The notes under the pieces: model-generated
What the model was told of the DNA's origin: nothing
Seen by the model: the letters and a program-made list of their open reading frames with translations, nothing else
Database searches by the model: none
Part shown: piece after piece, positions 10,124-40,767 of the stretch
Numbering within the stretch: the first letter of the stretch is position 1
Layout: every line of letters begins with the position of its first letter
Origin: Patescibacteria group bacterium
GTDB lineage: Bacteria; Patescibacteriota; Patescibacteriia; 2-01-FULL-39-33
NCBI GenBank assembly: GCA_041649575.1
Contig: JBAZMW010000002.1
Span: forward strand, 148,487 to 212,486
Direction of reading: 5' to 3'
DNA length: 64,000 nt
Made by a program: the position numbers and the translations under genes

Positions 10124-11941
10124 ATGACCGCCAAAGAACTCAAACAAAAATATTTAGAATTTTTTGAGCGCCACGGCCACCAGATTATTCCTGGCGCCTC
10201 ACTGATTCCGGAGAACGACCCGACGGTTTTATTTACCACGGCCGGCATGCATCCGCTCGTGCCTTATCTGCTTGGCGAAAAGCATCCCGCCGGCACACGC
10301 CTGGCCGATGTCCAAAAATGCATCAGGACCGGCGACATCGACAGCGTGGGCGACGACTGGCATCTGACTTTTTTTGAAATGCTGGGCAATTGGTCGCTGG
10401 GCGACCCCAAGGATCCCAAAGGGATCGGGGCAGGTTATTTCAAAAAAGAAGCCATTGAGATGAGTTTTGAATTTTTAACCAAAGAGTTAAATATACCTTT
10501 GGAAAAATTGGCGGTTTCTTGCTTCGCCGGCGATGATGATGCGCCAAAAGACGAAGAATCGGCGAGTGCTTGGCGTTCGCTGGGGATCAGTGACAAACGG
10601 ATTGCTTTTTTGAGTAAGGAAGATAATTGGTGGCCGGCCGGTGGCAAAATGCCCGGTCCTCAAGGCCCGGACACGGAGATGTTTTATTGGAACTCGGATG
10701 AGTCGGCGCCGGAAGATTTCGACCCACAGGACAAGCGCTGGGTGGAAATCTGGAATGATGTTTTTATGCAATATAACAAGGCCGCCGACGGCAGCTACCA
10801 GCCGCTGGTGCAACAAAATGTCGATACCGGCATGGGATTGGAGCGTACCGTTGCTATCTTAAACGGCAAAAAAAGCGTCTACGAAATCGAGCCGCTCTTA
10901 ACCGTTTGTTCGCAAGTAACGGCTTTATTCGAGAGCACCCTGGAAGAACTGGAAGCCGAACAAACCAAAGCCGTCAGAATCATTGCCGATCATTTGCGCG
11001 CCGCCGTCTTTATTTTGGCCGAGAGCGTGGCGCCCTCCAACGTTGAACGTGGCTATGTCCTGCGCCGGCTGATTCGGCGCGCTATTCGCTATGGCAAGCA
11101 ACTGGGCATCAAAGACGCTTTCACTGCCAAAGTGGCCGAAGTGGTCATCGCGCAAATGGGCGGATTTTATAAGGAACTAAGAGAACAGCGAGATTTCATT
11201 ATCGATGAATTAAACAACGAAGAAGAAAAGTTTAGCGCTACTTTAGAAAACGGCTTAAAAAAGTTTGAAAAATTAAAAATTGACGAGCAAAAAAAGATCA
11301 GCGGCCAAGATGCTTTTATTCTTTTTTCCACTTATGGTTTCCCTTTGGAGATTACCAAAGACTTGGCCACCGAGCGCGGTTGGCAAGTTGACGAAGAAAA
11401 TTTTAATCTAGAATTTGCCAAGCATCAGGACATTTCCCGAAAAGGCGCCGAGCAAAAATTCAAGGGCGGTTTGGCCGATAATAGCGAAGTGACGGCCAAG
11501 ATGCATACCGCCACGCATTTGATGTTGGCGGCTTTGCGCCGGGTGTTGGGCGATCACGTTTACCAAAAAGGTGCCAACATCACCAGCGAGCGCATTCGCT
11601 TTGATTTTTCCCATGGCGAAAAAATGACAGCAGAACAAATCAAGCAAGTGGAAGACTTGGTCAATGAACAAATTAATAAAAAGATTCCCGTGGTCTGCGA
11701 AGAAATGACGCTAGAAGAAGCCAAGGAGAGGGGAGCGATGGGAGTTTTTAAAAATAAATACGGCGAGCGGGTTAAGGTTTATACCGTCGGCGATCCCTCG
11801 GCAGGATCGGGACAGGTTTTTTCCAAAGAGATTTGCGGCGGTCCGCATGCCGCCAACACCGGTGATCTGGGCCACTTCAAAATCCAAAAAGAAGAATCCA
11901 GCTCCGCCGGAGTCAGAAGAATTAAGGCGGTTCTGGAGTGA
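10124..11941 (+). CDS. alaS: Alanine--tRNA ligase, short form (catalytic, tRNA-binding and editing HxxxH present; no C-Ala domain)
   Basis: N-terminal AlaRS class II core (FTTAGMHPLVPYLLG, WHLTFFEMLGNWSLGD) and editing motif HTATHLMLAALR. Ends at 605 aa. Confidence 0.85.
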   Translation: MTAKELKQKYLEFFERHGHQIIPGASLIPENDPTVLFTTAGMHPLVPYLLGEKHPAGTRLADVQKCIRTGDIDSVGDDWHLTFFEMLGNWSLGDPKDPKGIGAGYFKKEAIEMSFEFLTKELNIPLEKLAVSCFAGDDDAPKDEESASAWRSLGISDKRIAFLSKEDNWWPAGGKMPGPQGPDTEMFYWNSDESAPEDFDPQDKRWVEIWNDVFMQYNKAADGSYQPLVQQNVDTGMGLERTVAILNGKKSVYEIEPLLTVCSQVTALFESTLEELEAEQTKAVRIIADHLRAAVFILAESVAPSNVERGYVLRRLIRRAIRYGKQLGIKDAFTAKVAEVVIAQMGGFYKELREQRDFIIDELNNEEEKFSATLENGLKKFEKLKIDEQKKISGQDAFILFSTYGFPLEITKDLATERGWQVDEENFNLEFAKHQDISRKGAEQKFKGGLADNSEVTAKMHTATHLMLAALRRVLGDHVYQKGANITSERIRFDFSHGEKMTAEQIKQVEDLVNEQINKKIPVVCEEMTLEEAKERGAMGVFKNKYGERVKVYTVGDPSAGSGQVFSKEICGGPHAANTGDLGHFKIQKEESSSAGVRRIKAVLE

Positions 11942-25389: not shown

Positions 25390-27858
25390 ATGAACCTCAA
25401 TATCTCCTACAACTGGCTCAAAGAATATGTCAAGACAGACTTGATGGCTCATGAGTTTGCCAAAAAATTGTCTCTGTCTGGTCCTTCGGTTGACAGAATC
25501 AAAAAAGTCGGGGCGAATTTTGATAAGGTGGTGGTTGGCAAGATGCTGGAAATTAGCAAACACCCCAACGCCGACAAGTTAAATGTGGCCAAGATAGACA
25601 TCGGTAAAAAAGAACCCATTCAGGTTATTTTTGGACAGATGGCGGTGTTGAAAGTCGGGGATCAGTTACCGGTCGCTGTGGCGCCAACCAAGCTGCCTGG
25701 CGGCATAGAAATATTGGAAAGGGAAATGCGAGGCGTCAAATCACAAGGGATGTGTTGCCTGGACAGTGAGCTGGGTTTGTCCGATCAAGACAAGGTGACG
25801 TTTTTTCCGGCAAAGATAAAACCAGGAACTCCGATCGCCCAGGCACTGGAATTGAAAGAAGATTATATTTTGGATATCGAGGTCACTTCCAACCGGCCCG
25901 ATGCCATGAGTGTTATTGGTATTGCTCGTGAAGCCGCGGCCATACTTGGCGACAAATTTTTATATCAGGAGCCCAAAGGATTGCCACCAGTCTCGCCGAG
26001 CCTAGGCGGACGGTCGCGTCGCTCCCTCGCAATGACATTAAAAGTCACCGTCAAAGAGCCAAAGCTTTGCCCGCGCTACCAGGCGGCAGTGATGACCGGC
26101 GTCAAAGTCGAACCGTCACCACTTTGGATGCAGCAGCGATTATTGGCTTCCGGCTTGCGGCCAATCAATAATTTAGTCGACATTACTAATTATATTTTGT
26201 TGGAATTCGGACAGCCGATGCATGTTTTTGATTATGATAAACTGGCCGCCGCCGAGATTAATGTGCGCCTGGCTAAAAAAGGCGAGACTATCTTGGCGCT
26301 TGATGGCAAGGAATATGAATTGGATGAAAAAGTGTTAATTGTTGCCGATGGCAAGAATCCTTGCGCTGTTGGTGGCATAATGGGTGGCGAATTATCCGGC
26401 GCAACCGGTATAACCAAAAACGTAGTTTTGGAGGTTGGTAATTGGGACCCAGTTAACATCAGAAAGACCGCCAGAGTCCTAAATTTGCATTCAGAAAGCT
26501 CTGATTTATACGAGAAGGGTCTAAGCCCGGAAGGCACCCAATCGGCTCTCTTACGGGCCATGGAGCTGGTCGAGGATTTGGCCAGTGGCCAATTGGCCGG
26601 AGAAATCATTGATATTAATAATTACAAACATAAGGTTAAAGAAATAAAACTGGACACAGCCAATGTCAGTCGCTTTTTGGGCGTGACTATCACAAACTCA
26701 CAAATTAAAGAAAGTCTAGACTCTTTGGGTTTTGAAGTTTACCCTGTTAAATCCCGCTCTAAGCGGGACGGCTCTGCCGTACTTAACGGGGTAAAAGTGC
26801 CCTGGTGGCGTGATCGGGATATGGAAGGCGAACATGACCTGATCGAAGAAGTGGCGCGGCTTTATGGCTATCATAATTTGCCCACCAAGTTAATGGCCGG
26901 CGACCTGCTTTCCGCTGTCATTCCGAGCGAAGTCGAGAAATCCCTTAATTTTTATTGGCAAGACAAGGTAAAGGACATTTTGGCCGGCTTTGGTCTGACC
27001 GAGATTTATACCTACTCCTTCATCTCCGAAAAGCAAATTAATAATTGCCGCTTAAACGCCTCGGCCCATCTGAAAATTTCCAACCCCTTGAGCGCTGATT
27101 TTGAATACCTGCGCACTTCGCTCTTACCCGGCGCTTTGCAGATTATTATCGAAAATGCCGGCTTTTTTTCAGAGGTCAAGTTATTTGATCTATCCAATGT
27201 TTATTTGCCGGTTAAAAAAGATGATTTGCCTCTGGAAAAAACAACGCTTCTTGTCATCGTTTCCGCCAAAAGCGGGAAAGCGGCCCTAAATGAAGCCAAA
27301 GGTATTTTTGAAGGCTTACTAAAACGTCTGAATATTTCCGATTTTAAATATTTAAAAGCTGACAATGCCGAAGGTGTTTATTGTCCGCCGAATTCGCGGA
27401 TTATCGTGGCAGAAAAGGGGATTGGCAGTATTAGTCTGGTTGAGCCGAAAGTCTTAGCGGCTTTTGGCGTCAAAAACGACGTGGCCTTTATCGAGGTGGA
27501 GTTTGAAGCCATTGCTTCTCAAGCCAAATCCGCTCCTGCCTATCACTCGATTCCCAAGTTTCCGGCCATTGAGCTTGATCTGTCAATGGAAGTTGATAAT
27601 GTCATTACTTTTACCGAAGTGGCCAATGTTGCCAGCGATGCCGGCGCGCCTTTGGTTGAAAAAGTCGATTTCCTGTCAGTTTATCAGGGAGATCCGTCCC
27701 AGGCCGAGGCCAAGAAGCTGGCTGTAAATAAAAAAGCTTTGGCTATTAGAATCGTTTACCGCGATTTAAACAAAACCCTGGAGCTGGCCGAAGCGCAGGC
27801 CGCGCATCAAAAAATTGTTGCCGCTCTGAAAAAGGGGTATAATATAAAAGTGAGATAG
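25390..27858 (+). CDS. pheT: Phenylalanine--tRNA ligase beta subunit (carries an in-frame GC-rich repeat insertion)
   Basis: tRNA-binding N-terminus (MNLNISYNWLKEYV), B3/4 and B5 domains, C-terminal FDX-ACB-like region. Confidence 0.9.
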   Translation: MNLNISYNWLKEYVKTDLMAHEFAKKLSLSGPSVDRIKKVGANFDKVVVGKMLEISKHPNADKLNVAKIDIGKKEPIQVIFGQMAVLKVGDQLPVAVAPTKLPGGIEILEREMRGVKSQGMCCLDSELGLSDQDKVTFFPAKIKPGTPIAQALELKEDYILDIEVTSNRPDAMSVIGIAREAAAILGDKFLYQEPKGLPPVSPSLGGRSRRSLAMTLKVTVKEPKLCPRYQAAVMTGVKVEPSPLWMQQRLLASGLRPINNLVDITNYILLEFGQPMHVFDYDKLAAAEINVRLAKKGETILALDGKEYELDEKVLIVADGKNPCAVGGIMGGELSGATGITKNVVLEVGNWDPVNIRKTARVLNLHSESSDLYEKGLSPEGTQSALLRAMELVEDLASGQLAGEIIDINNYKHKVKEIKLDTANVSRFLGVTITNSQIKESLDSLGFEVYPVKSRSKRDGSAVLNGVKVPWWRDRDMEGEHDLIEEVARLYGYHNLPTKLMAGDLLSAVIPSEVEKSLNFYWQDKVKDILAGFGLTEIYTYSFISEKQINNCRLNASAHLKISNPLSADFEYLRTSLLPGALQIIIENAGFFSEVKLFDLSNVYLPVKKDDLPLEKTTLLVIVSAKSGKAALNEAKGIFEGLLKRLNISDFKYLKADNAEGVYCPPNSRIIVAEKGIGSISLVEPKVLAAFGVKNDVAFIEVEFEAIASQAKSAPAYHSIPKFPAIELDLSMEVDNVITFTEVANVASDAGAPLVEKVDFLSVYQGDPSQAEAKKLAVNKKALAIRIVYRDLNKTLELAEAQAAHQKIVAALKKGYNIKVR
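25978..26039 (+). repeat. In-frame GC-rich element 'Y' inside pheT (encodes LPPVSPSLGGRSRRSLAMT)
   Basis: Matches about 55 of 60 positions of the reverse complement of 38896-38957 (ggattgccaccagtctcgccgagcctaggcggacggtcgc...cgctccctcgcaatgacatt). Confidence 0.7.
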
Positions 27859-33900: not shown

Positions 33901-34002
33901 AGGAGTGGGGATAACTGTAATTGTTTGTTTATCCTTTTTATTTTATAATACCTTTAATGTCGCATAATATAGCTTAAGCGATAATAAAGCAAGTAATTAA
34001 TC

Positions 34003-34968
34003 ATGAAGAAATCAAATCTGCCTATTCTCAGTCAGTTTTCGGACTTTCTGGCCTATTGCGAGGTAGAAAAAGGTCTTAGCCCCATTTCTACCAGAAATTA
34101 CCACAATTTTTTGAGAATGTTCGAAGGTTGGCTAAAAATCAAACATTTAACGCAGCTCAAGCCGCATGAGCTCACTCCAGAGCATGTCTGGGACTACCGG
34201 CTTTATCTTTCCCGTCGGCAAGACCGCTCTGGTCGCTATATCAAAAAAACCACTCAAAATTATTATTTAATCGCCCTTAGGAACCTTTTGAACTACTTCG
34301 CCGATAAAGATATTATCTCTTTGCCTTCAGAAAAAGTTAAATTACCAAAATTAACCGAAAAAGACAAAGCGATAAAGTTTCTAAAGTTTGATCAGATAGA
34401 AAAGTTATTACAGGTGCCGGATGTCACCACTCTTGAAGGCCTAAGGGACAGAACGATTCTCGAAATTCTCTTCTCTACTGGTATGCGGGTTTCGGAGTTA
34501 ACGTCGCTTAATATCAAACAGTTTGATCGCCTAGCTTTACTAAAAAATAATTTTTCTGATCAAGAGTTAAGCATCGCTGGTAAAGGTGGTAGAACAAGAA
34601 CGGTTTATTTTTCTCATCGAGCTTTGGGTTGGCTGGCTAGATACTTAAAAAACAGAAACGACCTCTATCCCCCGCTTTTTATTAACTATCGTCCCCATAA
34701 TGACAGAGATGACGAGCACCGTTTAACGCCTCGTTCGGTTGAAAGATTGGTAAAAAGACACACCGTGATGGCCGGGTTGCCTGTTGATGCCACGCCGCAC
34801 ACCCTGCGTCATAGCTATGCCACGGATTTATTGGATCAGGGAGCAGATTTGCGCAGTGTCCAGGAGCTTTTGGGGCATAAAAATATTGTTACCACTCAAA
34901 TTTATACTCACGTCACCAATCAAAAGCTTCGCTCCATTCATAAAAAATTTCATAGTGGCAATCATTGA
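34003..34968 (+). CDS. Tyrosine recombinase XerC/XerD family
   Basis: SAM-like N-domain. Catalytic R...HTLRHSYAT...LGH...Y (HTLRHSYATDLLDQGADLRSVQELLGHKNIVTTQIYTHV). Confidence 0.85.
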   Translation: MKKSNLPILSQFSDFLAYCEVEKGLSPISTRNYHNFLRMFEGWLKIKHLTQLKPHELTPEHVWDYRLYLSRRQDRSGRYIKKTTQNYYLIALRNLLNYFADKDIISLPSEKVKLPKLTEKDKAIKFLKFDQIEKLLQVPDVTTLEGLRDRTILEILFSTGMRVSELTSLNIKQFDRLALLKNNFSDQELSIAGKGGRTRTVYFSHRALGWLARYLKNRNDLYPPLFINYRPHNDRDDEHRLTPRSVERLVKRHTVMAGLPVDATPHTLRHSYATDLLDQGADLRSVQELLGHKNIVTTQIYTHVTNQKLRSIHKKFHSGNH

Positions 34969-34977
34969 AATAAAAAC

Positions 34978-35006
34978 TACGTCCCGATAACCGGGACGGA
35001 GTTTTT
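34978..35006 (+). terminator. rho-independent terminator
   Basis: GTCCCGataaCCGGGAC followed by GGAGTTTTT. Confidence 0.6.
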
Positions 35007-35049
35007 CAGAGAATAAAATCGTCTTTTGTTTATTCTTTCTCTTTGCAAC

Positions 35050-35178
35050 CGCAGCCGCAACCGGCCCCGCAGGAACAGCAATGAAAACAAACCTCCGGCT
35101 CGCAGGAACAGCGGGTTTCTTCGTCTATGGGCATCTCGCATTTAGCGCATTTATCCATAAAATTTGGTTAATTATTTA
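35050..35178 (-). CDS. Cys-rich 42-aa peptide (12 Cys; ...CSCEPEVCFHCCSCGAGCGCGC...), metallothionein-like or RiPP-precursor-like
   Basis: Complete ATG...TAA frame, 20 nt downstream of the M23 peptidase gene on the same strand. Strongly GC-rich. Not in the ORF track because it is under 60 aa. Confidence 0.4.
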
Positions 35179-35197
35179 ATAATATCTAATTTCTAGT

Positions 35198-36451
35198 TTA
35201 AGGCAAGTAGGTCGAGGGGCTGACTGGGATGCCATTAGAGCGCACCTCGAAATGTAAATGGGGACCGGTAGAAAATCCCGTGTTGCCGCTGTAACCGATA
35301 ATTTGTCCTTTGGTGACATATTGATCACCTTTAACATTAATACTGCTTAAATGGCCATATAGAGTCGAGAGATTGTTGTTATGAATGATCATGACGTAGG
35401 TGCCATACCAGCGGGTGTTGGCGGCTACTTTGGCCACATAGCCGGATTCGGCCGCTTTTACTGGTGTGCCGATTTTGGCCGCTAGGTCGATTCCCGAATG
35501 TTCAAAGAGATTACGAAACGGGTAATCGGGATCATGAAAATAACAAGTAATCCGGGGATTGTTAATGGGCCAGATCAAAGCGGCTTCTCCCAGAGAATTA
35601 AATTTTTCCTGACTCCCCTTTTTTTCCAGCTCTTGTCGAATTTTTCTTTCCAAGGCGGCGATTTGATTATTGGCCGCCGTTTGTTCTTTTTTGAGATCGG
35701 TAATCAGGTTTTGAAATTTGACCTCCGATTTTTTGGTCTCGACAATCAGATACTGTTTGGCGCCCTTTTGTTCGCCCAGCGCCGTCTTTTCCTGTTCCAG
35801 CTTGTTTAGCAAGTCTGAAAGTTGATCGCGTTCGCCGTTTAATTTTTCTTTTTGCTTGTTCAAAGTTTCTACCAGTTCTTGCACGCGGTTCAGGGTTTTT
35901 TGTAAATCACCTTCTATATTTTCCAAAGCTTTTACCTGATCGAAAAATTCCGAAAAAGAATTGTTGCTTAGTAAAACAAAAAGATAATTTTTGTCGTCAT
36001 AATGATCGAGAGCGCGGATAAAAGCGGCCAGCCGTTCCTTGTCTTTATTGATCATCAGCTCATTTTCTTTGATTTTCAGGCCGATTTTTTCTATTTCCAG
36101 TTCGGTTGATTTAATCTCCTCTTCTTTGGCGGTGATGTCTAGTCCCATTTTGGCGATCTGATTATCCAAAATATAAACTTGATTTTTAAAGTTGGCCGCT
36201 TGGCCCTGGGCTTTTTTGATGCTGTCTTTGTGCTTGTTTATCTCCTCGGCTAATTTGTCTATTTTTTCCTGTTGGGCTTCAATTTGCTTGTTTAAATTGG
36301 CTATCAAAGCTTCATTAGAGCCGGAGTCGCCAGCTGTCTCTTGCGCTCGCCCTATTTCTCTGGACATCAAAAAAACACCGCCAAAAATAATTAACGGCAT
36401 CAAAATTGACGCTAAAATATGATATTTTAGCTTTTTCAGTTCGGCAAGCAT
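35198..36451 (-). CDS. M23 family metallopeptidase with N-terminal TM and long coiled coil (EnvC-like)
   Basis: C-terminal HSGIDLAA...GHLS...GNTGFSTGPHLHFEV LytM/M23 motifs. Confidence 0.85.
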   Translation of the reverse strand: MLAELKKLKYHILASILMPLIIFGGVFLMSREIGRAQETAGDSGSNEALIANLNKQIEAQQEKIDKLAEEINKHKDSIKKAQGQAANFKNQVYILDNQIAKMGLDITAKEEEIKSTELEIEKIGLKIKENELMINKDKERLAAFIRALDHYDDKNYLFVLLSNNSFSEFFDQVKALENIEGDLQKTLNRVQELVETLNKQKEKLNGERDQLSDLLNKLEQEKTALGEQKGAKQYLIVETKKSEVKFQNLITDLKKEQTAANNQIAALERKIRQELEKKGSQEKFNSLGEAALIWPINNPRITCYFHDPDYPFRNLFEHSGIDLAAKIGTPVKAAESGYVAKVAANTRWYGTYVMIIHNNNLSTLYGHLSSINVKGDQYVTKGQIIGYSGNTGFSTGPHLHFEVRSNGIPVSPSTYLP

Positions 36452-36500
36452 GGAAAGAAGATTATTTTAATCTTATTCTACAAGAATTATATAACAATTC

Positions 36501-36529
36501 TTGACAAAAATCAATCTCAAAGCTATTAT
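36501..36529 (+). promoter_or_regulatory. Promoter TTGACA-17-TATTAT of a GC-rich cassette
   Basis: TTGACA at 36501-36506, 17-bp spacer, TATTAT at 36524-36529. Confidence 0.55.
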
Positions 36530-36584
36530 TTTTATTAAGTTGTCCTTTGGCTTTTGGTGAAGTTTCAACAACGGAGGGAGAAAC

Positions 36585-36848
36585 ATGGGACTCGTCGCTC
36601 CTGACACTCGCGGCAACGCGTGCTGGCTGATTAAATGCAACAACTGCGGCCATCAGGCGGCTTGGGATGGCTCCAATGCCGAGCAAACCCTTAGCCTGGC
36701 CGAGAATGATGGTTGGACGGTAACTCGAGGCAAGGGCCCAGGTGAGGTGGTCGCTCTGTGCCCCGAATGCAGGAAGAAACAACAGAAAGTCACTCCAGCC
36801 GCCATTGTCAGCCTGATGGATTTCCGCCAAGCATTGCCCAGGCGGTGA
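36585..36848 (+). CDS. Small zinc-ribbon protein (87 aa; CNNCGH...CPEC), G+C-rich
   Basis: GGAGGGAG RBS. Two CxxC pairs. Bidirectional terminator at 36889-36928. Confidence 0.5.
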   Translation: MGLVAPDTRGNACWLIKCNNCGHQAAWDGSNAEQTLSLAENDGWTVTRGKGPGEVVALCPECRKKQQKVTPAAIVSLMDFRQALPRR

Positions 36849-36888
36849 GCCGCGGGAGGTTTCCGAGATTCCCAACGTCAAAGGTTTC

Positions 36889-36928
36889 AAGGCTTGGACC
36901 GAGCGCGGTTCAAGCCTTTTCTGTCTTT
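36889..36928. terminator. Bidirectional terminator (GC-rich cassette and gltX)
   Basis: AAGGCTTGgaccgagcgcggttCAAGCCTT followed by TTCTGTCTTT. Confidence 0.55.
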
Positions 36929-38418
36929 AAGCGCTCCAGCGCTTGCCTGATTCTTAGTAAACTTTTTTCTGGTCCCAAAATTTCCGCCACCTCAAACGGC
37001 GTTGGCGATTTTTCCATTCCCGTCAGCGCCACTCTCATCGGCCACAGCACTTCGCCGTTGGTCAGATTGTTTTTAGTGATAAAAGTTTTTAATTTATTTT
37101 CCAATACTCCCCTTTCCCAGTCGCTGGCAGAATATTTTTCCAACTCCTGCAAAGTTAATTGCAAATTTTTTTTAGCCGCTTCCGCGCTAGATTTTTTCCA
37201 GACCAGCAAGCTCGGGTTATAACTTAGCTCAGCGGTAAAGAAAAAATTTATCCTCCCCCCTACTTCGTTCAAGCGGCTAACCCTTTCTTGTTCTAGTTTT
37301 AGTATTTTTTCCAAATCCAAATCAGTTGGCATTTGACCGACATTCTTTTCCAAATACGGCTTGGCTAGTTGGGCAAATTTAGTATTGGTCAGTTTCTTAA
37401 GGTATTCGCCATTGAGCCAGTCTAGTTTGGCTAGATCAAAAATGGCTCCGGCCTTGTGCACCTTGGCCAGAGAAAAAGCCTGAATAAGTTCTGGCAGGAG
37501 AAAAATTTCTTGTTCAGTGCCCGGATTCCAACCCAAAAGCGCCACAAAATTTAGGAGCGCTTCCGGCAAATAGCCTTTGTCGCGGTAATCCTCCACCGCC
37601 ACGTCGCCTTGTCGTTTGGACAGTTTGCTGCGGTCGGCGTTTAAGATCAGAGGCAAATGGGCAAACAGCGGCGGCGTCCAGCCCAAAAATTTGTACAACA
37701 ATAAATGCTTTGGCGTCGAAGACAGCCACTCTTCGCCGCGAATGACATGGGAGATTTTCATCAGATGGTCGTCAACCACCGAAGCCAAGTGATAAGTCGG
37801 AAAGCCATCGGCTTTCAAGATCACTTGGTCGTCTATTTCCCGGCTACGAAATTTTATTTCGCCGCGAATCAAATCATTAAAAACCACTTCTTGATTTTCC
37901 GGCACCTTCATTCTGATGGTGTATTTTTCGCCGGCCGCCAACTTATTTTGCACTTCATCTGGCAACAGATGGCGGCAATGCCAATCATATCTGGTTGGCT
38001 GTTTGGCGGCCTCTTGCTGTCGGCGTAAATTTTCTAACCTTTCCTCACTGCAGAAGCAATAATAGGCCAAACCCTTATTTACTAGCTCGGAGGCGTATTT
38101 CTGATAGATTTCGAGCCTTTTAGACTGCGTGTAGGGCCCAAAATGGCCTTTTTCAACGGCTTTTCCGGCTTTATCGAGTATTACGCCCTCGTCGGGTTTT
38201 AGGCTCGCCCAAGCCAAATTTTTGAGCAAATTTTCTACCGCCCCCGGCACTTCCCTGGTTTGGTCGGTATCTTCGATTCTCAGCACAAAAGACCCTTTAT
38301 TTTGTTTGGCAAAAATATAGGCATAGAGCGCGGTGCGTAGTCCCCCGACATGCAAATAGCCAGTCGGACTCGGCGCAAAGCGGGTGCGGACCTTTAATTT
38401 GTTTAGAAAAGAAAACAT
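36910..38418 (-). CDS. gltX: Glutamate--tRNA ligase
   Basis: RFAPSPTGYLHVGGLRTALY (HIGH) and KLSKRQG (KMSKS). Confidence 0.92.
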   Translation of the reverse strand: MFSFLNKLKVRTRFAPSPTGYLHVGGLRTALYAYIFAKQNKGSFVLRIEDTDQTREVPGAVENLLKNLAWASLKPDEGVILDKAGKAVEKGHFGPYTQSKRLEIYQKYASELVNKGLAYYCFCSEERLENLRRQQEAAKQPTRYDWHCRHLLPDEVQNKLAAGEKYTIRMKVPENQEVVFNDLIRGEIKFRSREIDDQVILKADGFPTYHLASVVDDHLMKISHVIRGEEWLSSTPKHLLLYKFLGWTPPLFAHLPLILNADRSKLSKRQGDVAVEDYRDKGYLPEALLNFVALLGWNPGTEQEIFLLPELIQAFSLAKVHKAGAIFDLAKLDWLNGEYLKKLTNTKFAQLAKPYLEKNVGQMPTDLDLEKILKLEQERVSRLNEVGGRINFFFTAELSYNPSLLVWKKSSAEAAKKNLQLTLQELEKYSASDWERGVLENKLKTFITKNNLTNGEVLWPMRVALTGMEKSPTPFEVAEILGPEKSLLRIRQALERLKTEKA

Positions 38419-38421
38419 AAA

Positions 38422-39291
38422 TTATTTTTTCTTTACCACCAGCCACCCAAATTTAATGGTGGCATTATAAATCCTACTTAACCGGCGCGGTTCTTGGATT
38501 AGCCGATATAGCCATTCTAACCCCAATCGCCTCAAAAATAAAGGCGCGCGTCTCACCTGTCCCGACAAAAAATCAAAAGTCCCGCCGACGCCAATCGCCA
38601 CTTTAATTTTTGGCACTTTGGCTAAGTTGTCTCTGATCCACTTCTCCTGCCTCACTTGCGGCAAGGCCACCAACAGAATATTGGCTTCGCTGGCATTAAT
38701 TTTTTCCAGCACCTGATTGTTGTTTTCAAATTGCCAACATTTGTTTTCTATGGGATCCCCACGGCCGGCTTCGCCGGCCTCGGGATGACATTGTAGAAGC
38801 GGCCCGCCTTGGTCAAAGCCAGCCACTTTGCCAATATATTTTTCTGCCACTTGTTTTGCCGCTCCTTCTTTTCCGCCCAGTAAATAAATTTTATAAATGT
38901 CATTGCGAGGGAGCGCGAGCGACCGTCCGCCTAGGCTCGGCGAGACTGGTGGCAATCCCGTGGGATCACCGCGTTGCCCGGTCATTTGACCGGGCTCCTC
39001 GGGATGACAACTTAGAAGTGCCTCTATTAGATCCACGCCCGTCACTCTCTCTAATTTTTCTTGTTTTAAAAATTTAGCCGCCCAAACCAGCCCAGCGCCA
39101 TCGCAGGTGGCCAAATCAGCATTATTTAAAATATTTCTGAAAACTTCGTCTTTTTGCGCCGCCACCACAAATTCCGGATTAATCGTCACCACCTGCCTTT
39201 GGCCTTCCGCTGTCAGCCATTTTTTAATTAACTTCAAGGCTTCTGGCAAATTGACCTGATCGATTTTTATTCCCAGTATTTCTATTTTCAT
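38422..39291 (-). CDS. WecG/TagA/CpsF-family glycosyltransferase carrying three in-frame GC-rich repeat insertions
   Basis: VVTINPEFVV...ADLATCDGAGLVWAAKF...GVDLIEALL and C-terminal RVAGPDL-type region are typical TagA. Extra segments CHPEEPGQMTGQRGDPTGLPPVSPSLGGRS and CHPEAGEAGRGDP. Confidence 0.75.
   Translation of the reverse strand: MKIEILGIKIDQVNLPEALKLIKKWLTAEGQRQVVTINPEFVVAAQKDEVFRNILNNADLATCDGAGLVWAAKFLKQEKLERVTGVDLIEALLSCHPEEPGQMTGQRGDPTGLPPVSPSLGGRSLALPRNDIYKIYLLGGKEGAAKQVAEKYIGKVAGFDQGGPLLQCHPEAGEAGRGDPIENKCWQFENNNQVLEKINASEANILLVALPQVRQEKWIRDNLAKVPKIKVAIGVGGTFDFLSGQVRRAPLFLRRLGLEWLYRLIQEPRRLSRIYNATIKFGWLVVKKK
38751..38799 (-). repeat. In-frame GC-rich element 'X', copy 1
   Basis: tgggatcccc-[GGCCGGCttcGCCGGCC hairpin]-ctcgggatgacattgtagaag. 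Same flanks as copy 2 with a different, compensatory hairpin. Confidence 0.6.
38896..39018 (-). repeat. Composite in-frame element X2+Y (about 120 bp) bounded by imperfect inverted termini TGTCATCCCGAGG / CCTCGCAATGACA
   Basis: Y part (38896-38957) is homologous to the pheT insert. X part (38961-39018) is homologous to X1 and has the hairpin GCCCGGTCAaaTGACCGGGC. Confidence 0.6.
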
Positions 39292-39984: not shown

Positions 39985-40031
39985 ATACCAGCCTTTTTTG
40001 CAAAAGTAAATCAGTCTTGTTATAATAAAAG

Positions 40032-40245
40032 TGGTTCATTTCCTCGAGACCCGAACTGGTCATTTGGGTCTCACCGCTCCGGTGGGGAAGCGAAACCAGC
40101 GCCTTCGCTTCCCCTCTGGCTTAACCAAAGCACCTTGGTAGCACTTCCCGGGTCTACTGAAAGCCGCATCCAGGCAAGCATTAGACCCGTTCCCGCTGTG
40201 GCGGCCGATGGCATCAGTCATCAGCCGTCCTTTTTGTTTATCCAC
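40032..40245 (+). ncRNA. Candidate structured RNA R1 (about 210 nt, unclassified)
   Basis: TTGCAA-17-TATAAT promoter at about 40001-40024. GC-rich hairpins GAGACCC...GGGTCTC and GGGGAAGCGAA...TTCGCTTCCCC. T-run at 40230-40245. Confidence 0.3.
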
Positions 40246-40289
40246 AGTTAAATATTTATAACCAAAGAAATCTTTGCTATAATAAAATC

Positions 40290-40625
40290 ACATTGGACAT
40301 GGGGCTTGTCAAATGGCCCTGCAACCAGTCCGAACGGAGAACGAGCCATGAGAACAAAGACAACGAAGCGAGCAGCAGTGGGCGTGATGGTCGATGGCAC
40401 CGGCGGAACAGCGTACTTGGCGACGTCCTGACCTAACGAGAACGGTCGGACTGGGCGTCAAAGAAGTTCTCCGAGACGCTTGACTCAACCCAAGCGTCTC
40501 GCCGCACCTTAACTCTCCTCGGAGAGTTGTGACTATAGGTTTTCACGCTTTGACAAAGCGTGGACATCCCCCTAAGGTGAGCAGTCGGTTGCTGACAGGT
40601 AGCCGACTCTCTTTTTGTTTTTAAA
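40290..40625 (+). ncRNA. Candidate structured RNA R2 (about 330 nt) with SD and a 27-codon Thr-rich mini-ORF (40347-40430), ending in an intrinsic terminator
   Basis: Extended -10 TGCTATAAT at 40275-40283. Long-range pairing CAGTCCG...CGGACTG. Terminator GTCGGTTGCtgacaGGTAGCCGAC plus CTCTTTTTGTTTTT. Confidence 0.3.
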
Positions 40626-40767
40626 AAATTTAGTTATCCACAGGTACTATTTATTTCTTTAAAAAATAGTTATATAATGAAAGTGCGGAAGGTATTTACG
40701 ATAGCGTACAACCGAAGCAGGCCATCGGCCAAACGATCGGCCAAACGAAAGAAAGGTGGGACGGAAG

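Follow-up and report, generated by a model that had tools for sequence, protein, structure and literature searches.

In-frame hairpin repeats in tagA and pheT of a Patescibacteria genome and their likeness to Ssn-related motifs

The DNA considered here is a 64,000-nt stretch of a Patescibacteria contig (JBAZMW010000002.1, positions 148,487 to 212,486), in the following called the window, in whose coordinates all positions are given. Two conserved genes of the window carry short, GC-rich hairpin repeats within their reading frames, and we describe these repeats, their relatives in other genomes, and the known systems they resemble. The first host gene is a tagA/wecG-family glycosyltransferase gene, the product of which belongs to the Pfam family Glyco_tran_WecG (E-value 1.3e-45); an identical protein is recorded from a 235-kb contig of a Patescibacteria metagenome-assembled genome (MAG). 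Its open reading frame (ORF) harbours three repeat copies, named X1, X2 and Y, with element boundaries set at the motifs TGTCAT and ATCCC.

38422..39291, minus strand: tagA/wecG-family glycosyltransferase gene, ORF of 289 aa, host of X1, X2 and Y
38790..38752, minus strand: X1, 39 nt, TGTCATCCCGAGGCCGGCGAAGCCGGCCGTGGGGATCCC, a single copy; peptide CHPEAGEAGRGDP, aa 168-180
39009..38962, minus strand: X2, 48 nt, TGTCATCCCGAGGAGCCCGGTCAAATGACCGGGCAACGCGGTGATCCC, left half of a doublet; peptide CHPEEPGQMTGQRGDP, aa 95-110
38898..38959, plus strand: Y, 62 nt, outer stem ATTGC/GCAAT, right half of the doublet; antisense reading gives peptide GLPPVSPSLGGRSLALPRND, aa 112-131
38898..39009, no strand assigned: X2+Y, tail-to-tail inverted doublet, 112 nt, termini TGTCAT...ATGACA

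The ORF stays open through X1, X2 and Y, which are read as the peptides CHPEEPGQMTGQRGDP-T-GLPPVSPSLGGRSLALPRND and CHPEAGEAGRGDP. Alignment of the protein with 23 TagA orthologs of 234-261 aa reveals two lineage-specific in-frame inserts, at about residues 95-131 and 168-180, and nearly all orthologs have gaps opposite both. The X1 segment is absent from 22 of the 23; the exception, P0018, carries an unrelated repeat-type peptide, VETLHSTSLQ, at the X1 loop (alignment columns ~176-195). An earlier, sequence-only reading of this DNA had proposed lineage-specific, in-frame, GC-rich palindromic insertions. All strings it quoted are present where it had placed them, and the proposal is borne out by the TagA alignment as well as by the PheT alignment described below. 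Its statement that each of the three insertions preserves the frame has to be modified: the ORF is indeed open through all of them, but X2 and Y hold the frame only jointly and not singly, with 48 + 2 + 62 = 112 nt between the outer termini.

A model of TagA was built with AlphaFold2 from the ortholog alignment (mean predicted local distance difference test score, pLDDT, 87; predicted template modelling score, pTM, 0.83). Both inserts appear in it as coil, at residues 95-134 and 169-179, between regular secondary-structure elements. Residues 97-109 and 112-128 have pLDDT values below 50, and the block 171-180 has a mean of 57. The inserts thus lie in predicted surface or disordered loops, and structure prediction, a check the sequence-only reading had suggested, agrees with it in this respect. 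At the DNA level, X1 combines the head TGTCAT with an outer stem ATCCC/GGGAT and an inner stem GGCCGGC-GAA-GCCGGCC, while X2 has the inner stem GCCCGGTCA-AA-TGACCGGGC and one mismatch in its tail stem (GTGAT). When folded as single-stranded DNA (ssDNA) and compared with 200 shuffles, X1 (z -3.6), X2 (z -3.7) and the doublet X2+Y (z -4.7) all beat every shuffle.

X and Y had been taken for different elements, an assumption that does not hold. The reverse complement of Y, TGTCATTGCGAGG...GGCAATCCC, is framed as X is, TGTCATCCCGAGG...GGGGATCCC. Of the 13 positions in the inverted termini of X2+Y, 11 are complementary, and the terminal "mismatches" between X2 and Y (CC versus TG) are each compensated by the copy's own tail, GGGAT versus GCAAT. 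Since these differences are matched by the respective tails, each head pairs within its own copy. X and Y are a single repeat family in opposite orientations rather than two element types. The family architecture can be written as 5'-T GTC | AT-yy-C ... variable GC-rich hairpin ... G-rr-AT | C CC-3'. The conserved flanks that the sequence-only reading had ascribed to X are correct as to the common TGTCAT head; the "AA" it placed before TGTCAT is missing in X2, and the tail of X2 carries the mismatch mentioned above.

With at most one mismatch, the window holds the head TGTCATNNCGAGG five times, where 0.54 occurrences are expected, and none of 100 shuffles reached five; additional copies, the lack of which would have told against the sequence-only reading, are thus present. 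Three of these heads lie in tagA and two (26025-26037, minus strand; 26916-26928, plus strand) in pheT, which encodes the beta subunit of phenylalanyl-tRNA synthetase.

25390..27858, plus strand: pheT, phenylalanyl-tRNA synthetase beta subunit, 822 aa, host of Y', E and Z
25977..26037, minus strand: Y', 61 nt, near-identical to Y except for a 1-nt indel
26916..26944, plus strand: E, 29 nt, TGTCATTCCGAGCGAAGTCGAGAAATCCC, a short degenerate copy; peptide AVIPSEVEKS
26738..26795, plus strand: Z, a 13-bp stem enclosing two small hairpins; peptide YPVKSRSKRDGSAVLNGVK

PheT has 822 aa here, compared with ~786-790 aa in most relatives. Y' is read in antisense as GLPPVSPSLGGRSRRSLAMT, which is an insert relative to most PheT orthologs, and E adds a net ~5 aa. 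Y and Y' are recent intragenomic copies of one composite element. The 1-nt indel between them shifts the frame in which the element is left, to ..LALPRND in one case and ..RRSLAMT in the other, and each version suits its own host gene. This switch of the exit frame is direct evidence of selection for frame restoration. Stop-free reading is available in four of six frames for X1 and E and in three of six for X2, Y and Y', so the chance that an insert survives is not small.

The length of Y and Y' is accounted for by a nested module, delimited by alignment.

38927..38950, plus strand: 24-nt module CCGCCTAGGCTCGGCGAGACTGGT, nested in Y and present also in Y'

This module is missing from otherwise near-identical copies of ~37 nt elsewhere; adding the module to the ~37-nt element found in P0133 and in a Dehalococcoidaceae genome (L077) gives Y and Y'. 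A scan for the Y core recovered an overlapping 24-mer, GTCCGCCTAGGCTCGGCGAGACTG (38925-38948), which recurs without mismatch on two contigs of another metagenome as part of a different repeat. Y accordingly has the look of a mosaic in which one repeat module is nested inside another. In that metagenome, Ga0210057, the repeat with the 24-mer is intergenic and over 100 nt long (L121, 421-444; L122, 1576-1599), and on L122 this repeat lies ~270 nt downstream of a 79-aa ORF (1056-1304) of the GIY-YIG type, a nuclease family that will be of interest below.

Relatives were collected by scanning one genome per species with the pattern TGTCATYSCGAGGN{15,45}ATCCC, which matched at least 120 loci; chance alone could give on the order of 2,000 pattern matches in 596 Gb. 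Among the matches listed, head and tail are perfectly complementary in 92 of 132, where chance predicts about 1/64, and the outer stem covaries between several flavours: ATTGC/GCAAT (77 matches), ATCCC/GGGAT (7), ATTCC/GGAAT (5) and ATCGC/GCGAT (3). The modal form is the 35-mer TGTCATTGCGAGGAGCGAAGCGACGAAGCAATCCC. Hosts include Chloroflexota, Acidobacteriota, Proteobacteria, Bacteroidota, Cyanobacteria, Planctomycetota, Clostridia and several Patescibacteria lineages, and viral contigs carry the family as well. Under a general definition we counted 288 elements, 124 of which form tail-to-tail pairs at most 80 nt apart; 22 are arranged head to head, 34 in tandem, and 108 are single. As tail-to-tail doublets are the commonest arrangement, X2+Y is an ordinary doublet of the family, and this explains its termini, which had been described as resembling those of a miniature inverted-repeat transposable element (MITE). 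The inverted termini exist as described; a classical MITE it is not. In 94 clean copies, target-site duplications of 3 nt were found in none (1.5 expected) and of 2 nt in 8 (5.9 expected), and the flanks of the copies show no conservation.

Other kinds of element were considered as well. Rfam matches the elements neither in the window, whether gathering or E-value thresholds are applied, nor in 14 repeat-bearing loci, and a protein search with the insert peptide gave no candidate with words in common. Hammerhead or other ribozymes, tRNA fragments, CRISPR repeats and integron attC sites were rejected, as their conserved cores are absent and Rfam gives no support. Intron-like removal at the RNA level is unlikely, because all in-gene copies examined are in frame and free of stops, which excision would not require. 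Scans of the window for TCAT-xxx...xxx-AT and for GC islands were too noisy and were left unused.

In larger genomes, most copies of the family fall into short ORFs, i.e., intergenic DNA; in Patescibacteria and a few other low-GC MAGs, copies lie inside long ORFs. The in-gene copies elsewhere affect ValS (L053), KsgA (L021), UvrA (L015), UvrB (L090) and a PfkB kinase (L025). The leuS locus of Parcubacteria GW2011_GWB1_42_6 (L088) holds four tail-to-tail pairs, three of which are inside LeuS according to their peptides. The sequence-only reading held in-frame copies to be undescribed for genomes of the candidate phyla radiation (CPR), which agrees with our literature searches, as these found nothing of the kind.

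All five family copies, together with Z, are confined to tagA and pheT within the window and 10 kb on each side of it (83 kb); none is intergenic and none lies in the ~70 other genes. Local hopping, gene-specific tolerance or gene conversion could account for this clustering. An AT-rich sequence on the minus strand at 11603-11628, TGTCATTTTTTCGCCATGGGAAAAATCAA, shows the GTCAT...ATC frame and a 7-bp stem, and could be either a chance occurrence or a diverged family copy.

The string GTCATTCCCGC provided the route in the literature to Chenal et al. (2025, Nat Commun; PMC11893778), who describe hairpin repeats of similar build. The Neisseria repeat NTS, CGTCATTCCCGCGMAVGCGGGAATCYRG, encloses dRS3; NTS and the broader class of Ssn-related motifs (SRM) are hairpin repeats that are bound as ssDNA only (PMC11893778). 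The protein SsnA is a single-domain GIY-YIG nuclease of 94 aa that cuts a few nucleotides upstream of NTS/SRM. Work on N. meningitidis showed cleavage to depend on the trinucleotide directly 5' of the palindrome and binding to depend most on the C that follows on its 3' side, and the loop tolerates replacement or extension (PMC11893778). Rickettsia and Wolbachia are named among the SRM-rich genomes (PMC11893778), and it is from these genera that protein-coding palindromes are known (PMC2229807). Coding or in-frame copies and Patescibacteria find no mention in PMC11893778. All five window copies start with TGTCAT and thereby have the GTC, followed by a palindrome that begins and ends with AT and then a C (...AT-C-C(C/T)). 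A motif that does match the strict SRM expression, TGTCATCCCCGTGAAAACGGGGATCCAG, occurs in frame in the Parcubacteria LeuS mentioned above.

GIY-YIG genes were found next to family copies. Single-domain ORFs of 79-95 aa (PF01541, E-values of 1e-13 to 1e-16) adjoin copies in three loci: in a Patescibacteria genome (L076) the ORF has one inverted copy on each side, in Nostoc (L105) it is flanked by four copies, and in L120 the gene has two copies no farther than ~300 nt away. In a Komeilibacteria locus of 8 kb (L083), a GIY-YIG ORF and a family copy are ~3 kb apart. These ORFs were assigned by PF01541; neither Pfam nor NCBIfam allows assignment to the Ssn type (cd10448), for which NCBIfam has no model of its own.

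The loop of PheT that holds Y' is occupied in other lineages as well. P0122 and P0131 carry NTS-like types (VIPA..AGI) there, and P0133, P0153 and P0158 carry forward-plus-reverse doublets ending in ..SLAMT|LKV, at the same junction as Y'. For P0133 the agreement can be followed in the DNA (L250, ~1080-1210), where the codon junction of Y' is occupied by a family doublet, ...CGCAATGACG|TTAAAAGT compared with ...CGCAATGACA|TTAAAAGT in the source genome. At least three repeat types thus occur in one PheT surface loop across Patescibacteria lineages. Four of these lineages agree fully in the ..SLAMT|LKV junction, though closer relatives are without any insert; this could reflect insertion at a hot spot, or an ancient insertion followed by losses. 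The third pheT insert, Z, is a different hairpin element outside the X/Y family and an instance of the same phenomenon. It folds strongly as ssDNA (z -7.4), is in frame and adds a net 6 aa, and a relative with 84% identity and compensatory stem changes resides in another pheT loop of another Patescibacteria lineage (L249, P0132).

X1, X2, Y, Y' and E are copies of one family of ssDNA-hairpin repeats, and from these observations we consider it probable that the family is a long-centred branch of the NTS/SRM repeats that is kept in the form of neutral in-frame loops. The assignment to this branch is suggested by the build of the repeats as compared with the published motifs. A mechanism may be sketched as follows. 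The copies would fold while the DNA is single-stranded and be bound by a small single-domain GIY-YIG nuclease of the Ssn type, encoded elsewhere in the genome, which would nick a few nucleotides 5' of GTC. On a doublet, one nick would fall just outside each end, on opposite strands, a geometry suited to excising or copying the pair. On this view doublets would be non-autonomous relatives of units that hold the nuclease gene between two inverted copies, and the arrangement hairpin -> ssn <- hairpin of the Patescibacteria locus L076 would represent the autonomous form. Insertions into a gene-dense Patescibacteria genome would mostly hit genes, and survivors would be those that restore the frame, contain no stop and lie in permissive loops, to be translated as neutral, disordered extra loops like the Rickettsia palindromic elements (RPEs).

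Several points weigh against this reading. The published SRM expression HGTCWYN(0-2)YYVSBRHN(0-5)WNVSBRGN(0-2)RNCYNB fits none of the five copies in the window, and neither does the NTS consensus. These copies exceed NTS/SRM in the length of their centres and contain an internal loop, GAGG...CG(A/T)RG, that has no counterpart in NTS. (The sole match to the SRM expression in the window, at 37718-37747 in gltX, is no hairpin.) A GIY-YIG ORF was not found in the 83 kb, where the best profile hidden Markov model hit has an E-value of 0.13, and no GIY-YIG homolog was found in 120 family-bearing viral loci. The movement of repeats by Ssn is itself put forward in PMC11893778 as a hypothesis only. The element lengths from TGTCAT to ATCCC are not all multiples of three, which leaves the boundaries of the insertions undefined, and no allele with an empty site was found. 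Finally, compared with shuffles, neither Y alone (z -0.5) nor E shows a significant ssDNA fold, and E is the weakest assignment to the family.

Among other explanations, a classical element of MITE or RPE type would make X2+Y a non-autonomous unit with 13-bp terminal inverted repeats, mobilized by a DDE transposase acting on the TGT...ACA ends, with X1 and Y' as decayed halves. RPEs are units of 105-146 bp with one long stem-loop and terminal inverted repeats of ~12 bp (PMC2229807). The doublet, with its 112 nt and 13-nt termini, falls inside this range, and single copies (29-62 nt) fall outside. The inverted termini, the dominance of doublets, and the stop-free, in-frame insertion into conserved genes fit as well. 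We still regard this explanation as unlikely: X2+Y owes its inverted termini solely to the opposite orientation of two copies, each head covaries with the tail of its own copy rather than with the head of its partner, as many as 108 of 288 elements are single, target-site duplications and conserved flanks are missing, and no transposase gene was seen beside the copies, the only gene found bracketed by inverted copies being the GIY-YIG nuclease. The absence of target-site duplications is what one expects of repetitive extragenic palindromic (REP) sequences and their inverted doublets (REPINs), maintained by a REP-associated tyrosine transposase (RAYT) of the IS200/IS605-like Y1 type instead of a GIY-YIG nuclease. 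In favour of such an origin are the short ssDNA hairpins, whose conserved foot is asymmetric, the role of inverted doublets as the principal unit and the high copy numbers in many genomes. It nevertheless deserves little credence, given that the conserved foot is TGTC/GTC and the foot of REP sequences is GTAG/GTGG, that REP-RAYT systems are mainly known from Proteobacteria while the present family spans many phyla, and that no Y1-transposase gene was noticed beside the copies, although Y1/RAYT genes were not searched for systematically.

That the inserts are functional gene parts, either selected peptide loops (e.g., a Cys-His metal site formed by CHPE) or mRNA hairpins tuning translation or stability, which resemble repeats by convergence, would explain why the frame is kept, why the hairpins are stable and why several lineages have an insert in one and the same PheT loop. 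This is hardly tenable, since nearly all orthologs do without the inserts and the modelled loops are disordered. Moreover, the conservation is at the DNA level: the same DNA, read in differing frames and strands, yields unrelated peptides (CHPE.., VIPS.., ..SLAMT, ..PRND), and in larger genomes the copies are mostly intergenic. An assembly artefact, in the form of repeat-induced chimeric joins, has to be considered for a contig that stems from a MAG, the more so as the Y core is the very place where a second assembly breaks off. It can practically be discounted. The Logan assembly of SRR8542065 is 100% identical over 5,038 nt that include X1 and the right part of Y, both host ORFs are uninterrupted and can be aligned over their full length with orthologs, on either side of every insert, and similar in-frame copies occur in many unrelated assemblies. 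The Logan contig in question (L128, SRR8542065_289353) corresponds to window positions 33910-38947 and stops inside the Y core that is common to Y'. This is how assemblers break at a repeat, and such repeats fragment short-read assemblies of the source organism.

Starting again from the long-centred NTS/SRM branch as the preferred explanation, one may ask whether the tail-to-tail doublets are the non-autonomous form of an unrecognised class of mobile elements, with a hairpin -> ssn <- hairpin unit, ssDNA and GIY-YIG nicking, that actively remodels essential proteins of Patescibacteria. We consider this possible but doubtful; if it were true, the repeated hits in the PheT loop would reflect site preference and not tolerance alone. 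The findings join two so far separate literatures, that on in-frame protein-coding palindromes (RPE, Wolbachia) and that of 2025 on Ssn-related ssDNA hairpins. They show that many odd inserts in housekeeping proteins of Patescibacteria, such as aminoacyl-tRNA synthetases, TagA and KsgA, stem from repeat DNA rather than from lineage-specific functional domains, which matters for annotation, phylogenetic alignments and structure prediction. Genes with several independent insertions, nested modules and frame-restoring indels also provide a natural record of the spread of repeats.

A further feature of the window is a GC-rich stretch of ~750 nt at 40010-40760, which has no convincing ORF and no Rfam match. 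Folded as RNA and compared with shuffles, it gives z -5.5 for the plus and z -3.3 for the minus strand. Of the three perfect DnaA-box 9-mers in the window, TTATCCACA, it holds two (at 40238 and 40634), both preceded by CTTTTTGTTT, directly at 40238 and at a distance of ~15 nt at 40634, and it is situated near the turn of the cumulative GC skew (~32-38 kb). The stretch may be an origin-like region or contain one or more unannotated non-coding RNAs.

Turning to known systems, the family agrees with NTS, dRS3 and SRM in being an oriented hairpin repeat with GTC(A/T)(C/T) directly 5' of a palindrome that starts with AT, and with a C, followed by C or T, directly 3' of it. The loop or centre is free to vary, hundreds of copies are spread across distant phyla, and inverted copies surround a single-domain GIY-YIG gene of ~90 aa (here in L076 and L105). 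The strict SRM from LeuS and X1 have the head TGTCATCCC and the tail GGGGATCC in common. The present family differs from these repeats in its much longer, mosaic centres (29-62 nt overall) and in its conserved GAGG...CG(A/T)RG internal loop. In addition, the copies described here are intragenic and in frame in a Patescibacteria genome, two settings that find no mention in PMC11893778, and an ssn gene was not seen in 83 kb of the source genome.

With RPEs and the palindromes of Wolbachia (Ogata et al. 2000, 2002, 2005; review: PMC2229807), the family shares the in-frame position of palindromic repeats within conserved housekeeping genes and, as it appears, their translation into extra surface segments that are tolerated as near-neutral; the size of the X2+Y doublet is a further likeness. 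The resemblance to RPEs that the sequence-only reading had pointed out holds for behaviour; the sequence features point to NTS/SRM, and the family, which occurs in many phyla, is not specific to the CPR. Differences concern the basic unit, a hairpin of 30-60 nt here; the host, a free-living or episymbiotic Patescibacteria lineage; and the distribution, which spans many phyla and is not specific to a genus.

REP/REPIN sequences with their RAYTs resemble the family in consisting of ssDNA hairpins with an asymmetric conserved foot, in lacking target-site duplications, in having inverted doublets as the likely replicative unit, and in the association with a single, possibly domesticated, nuclease gene that is flanked by repeats. 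They differ in the foot (TGTC/GTC here, GTAG there) and in the associated protein, a GIY-YIG nuclease here as opposed to a Y1 (HUH) transposase; the present family also has a far wider phylogenetic range and copies in frame within genes. By its sequence features the family would be better filed with the Ssn-related hairpin repeats, RPE-like in behaviour, than as a new class of elements; what is new is the host and the setting, Patescibacteria and in-frame positions, for known kinds of selfish DNA.

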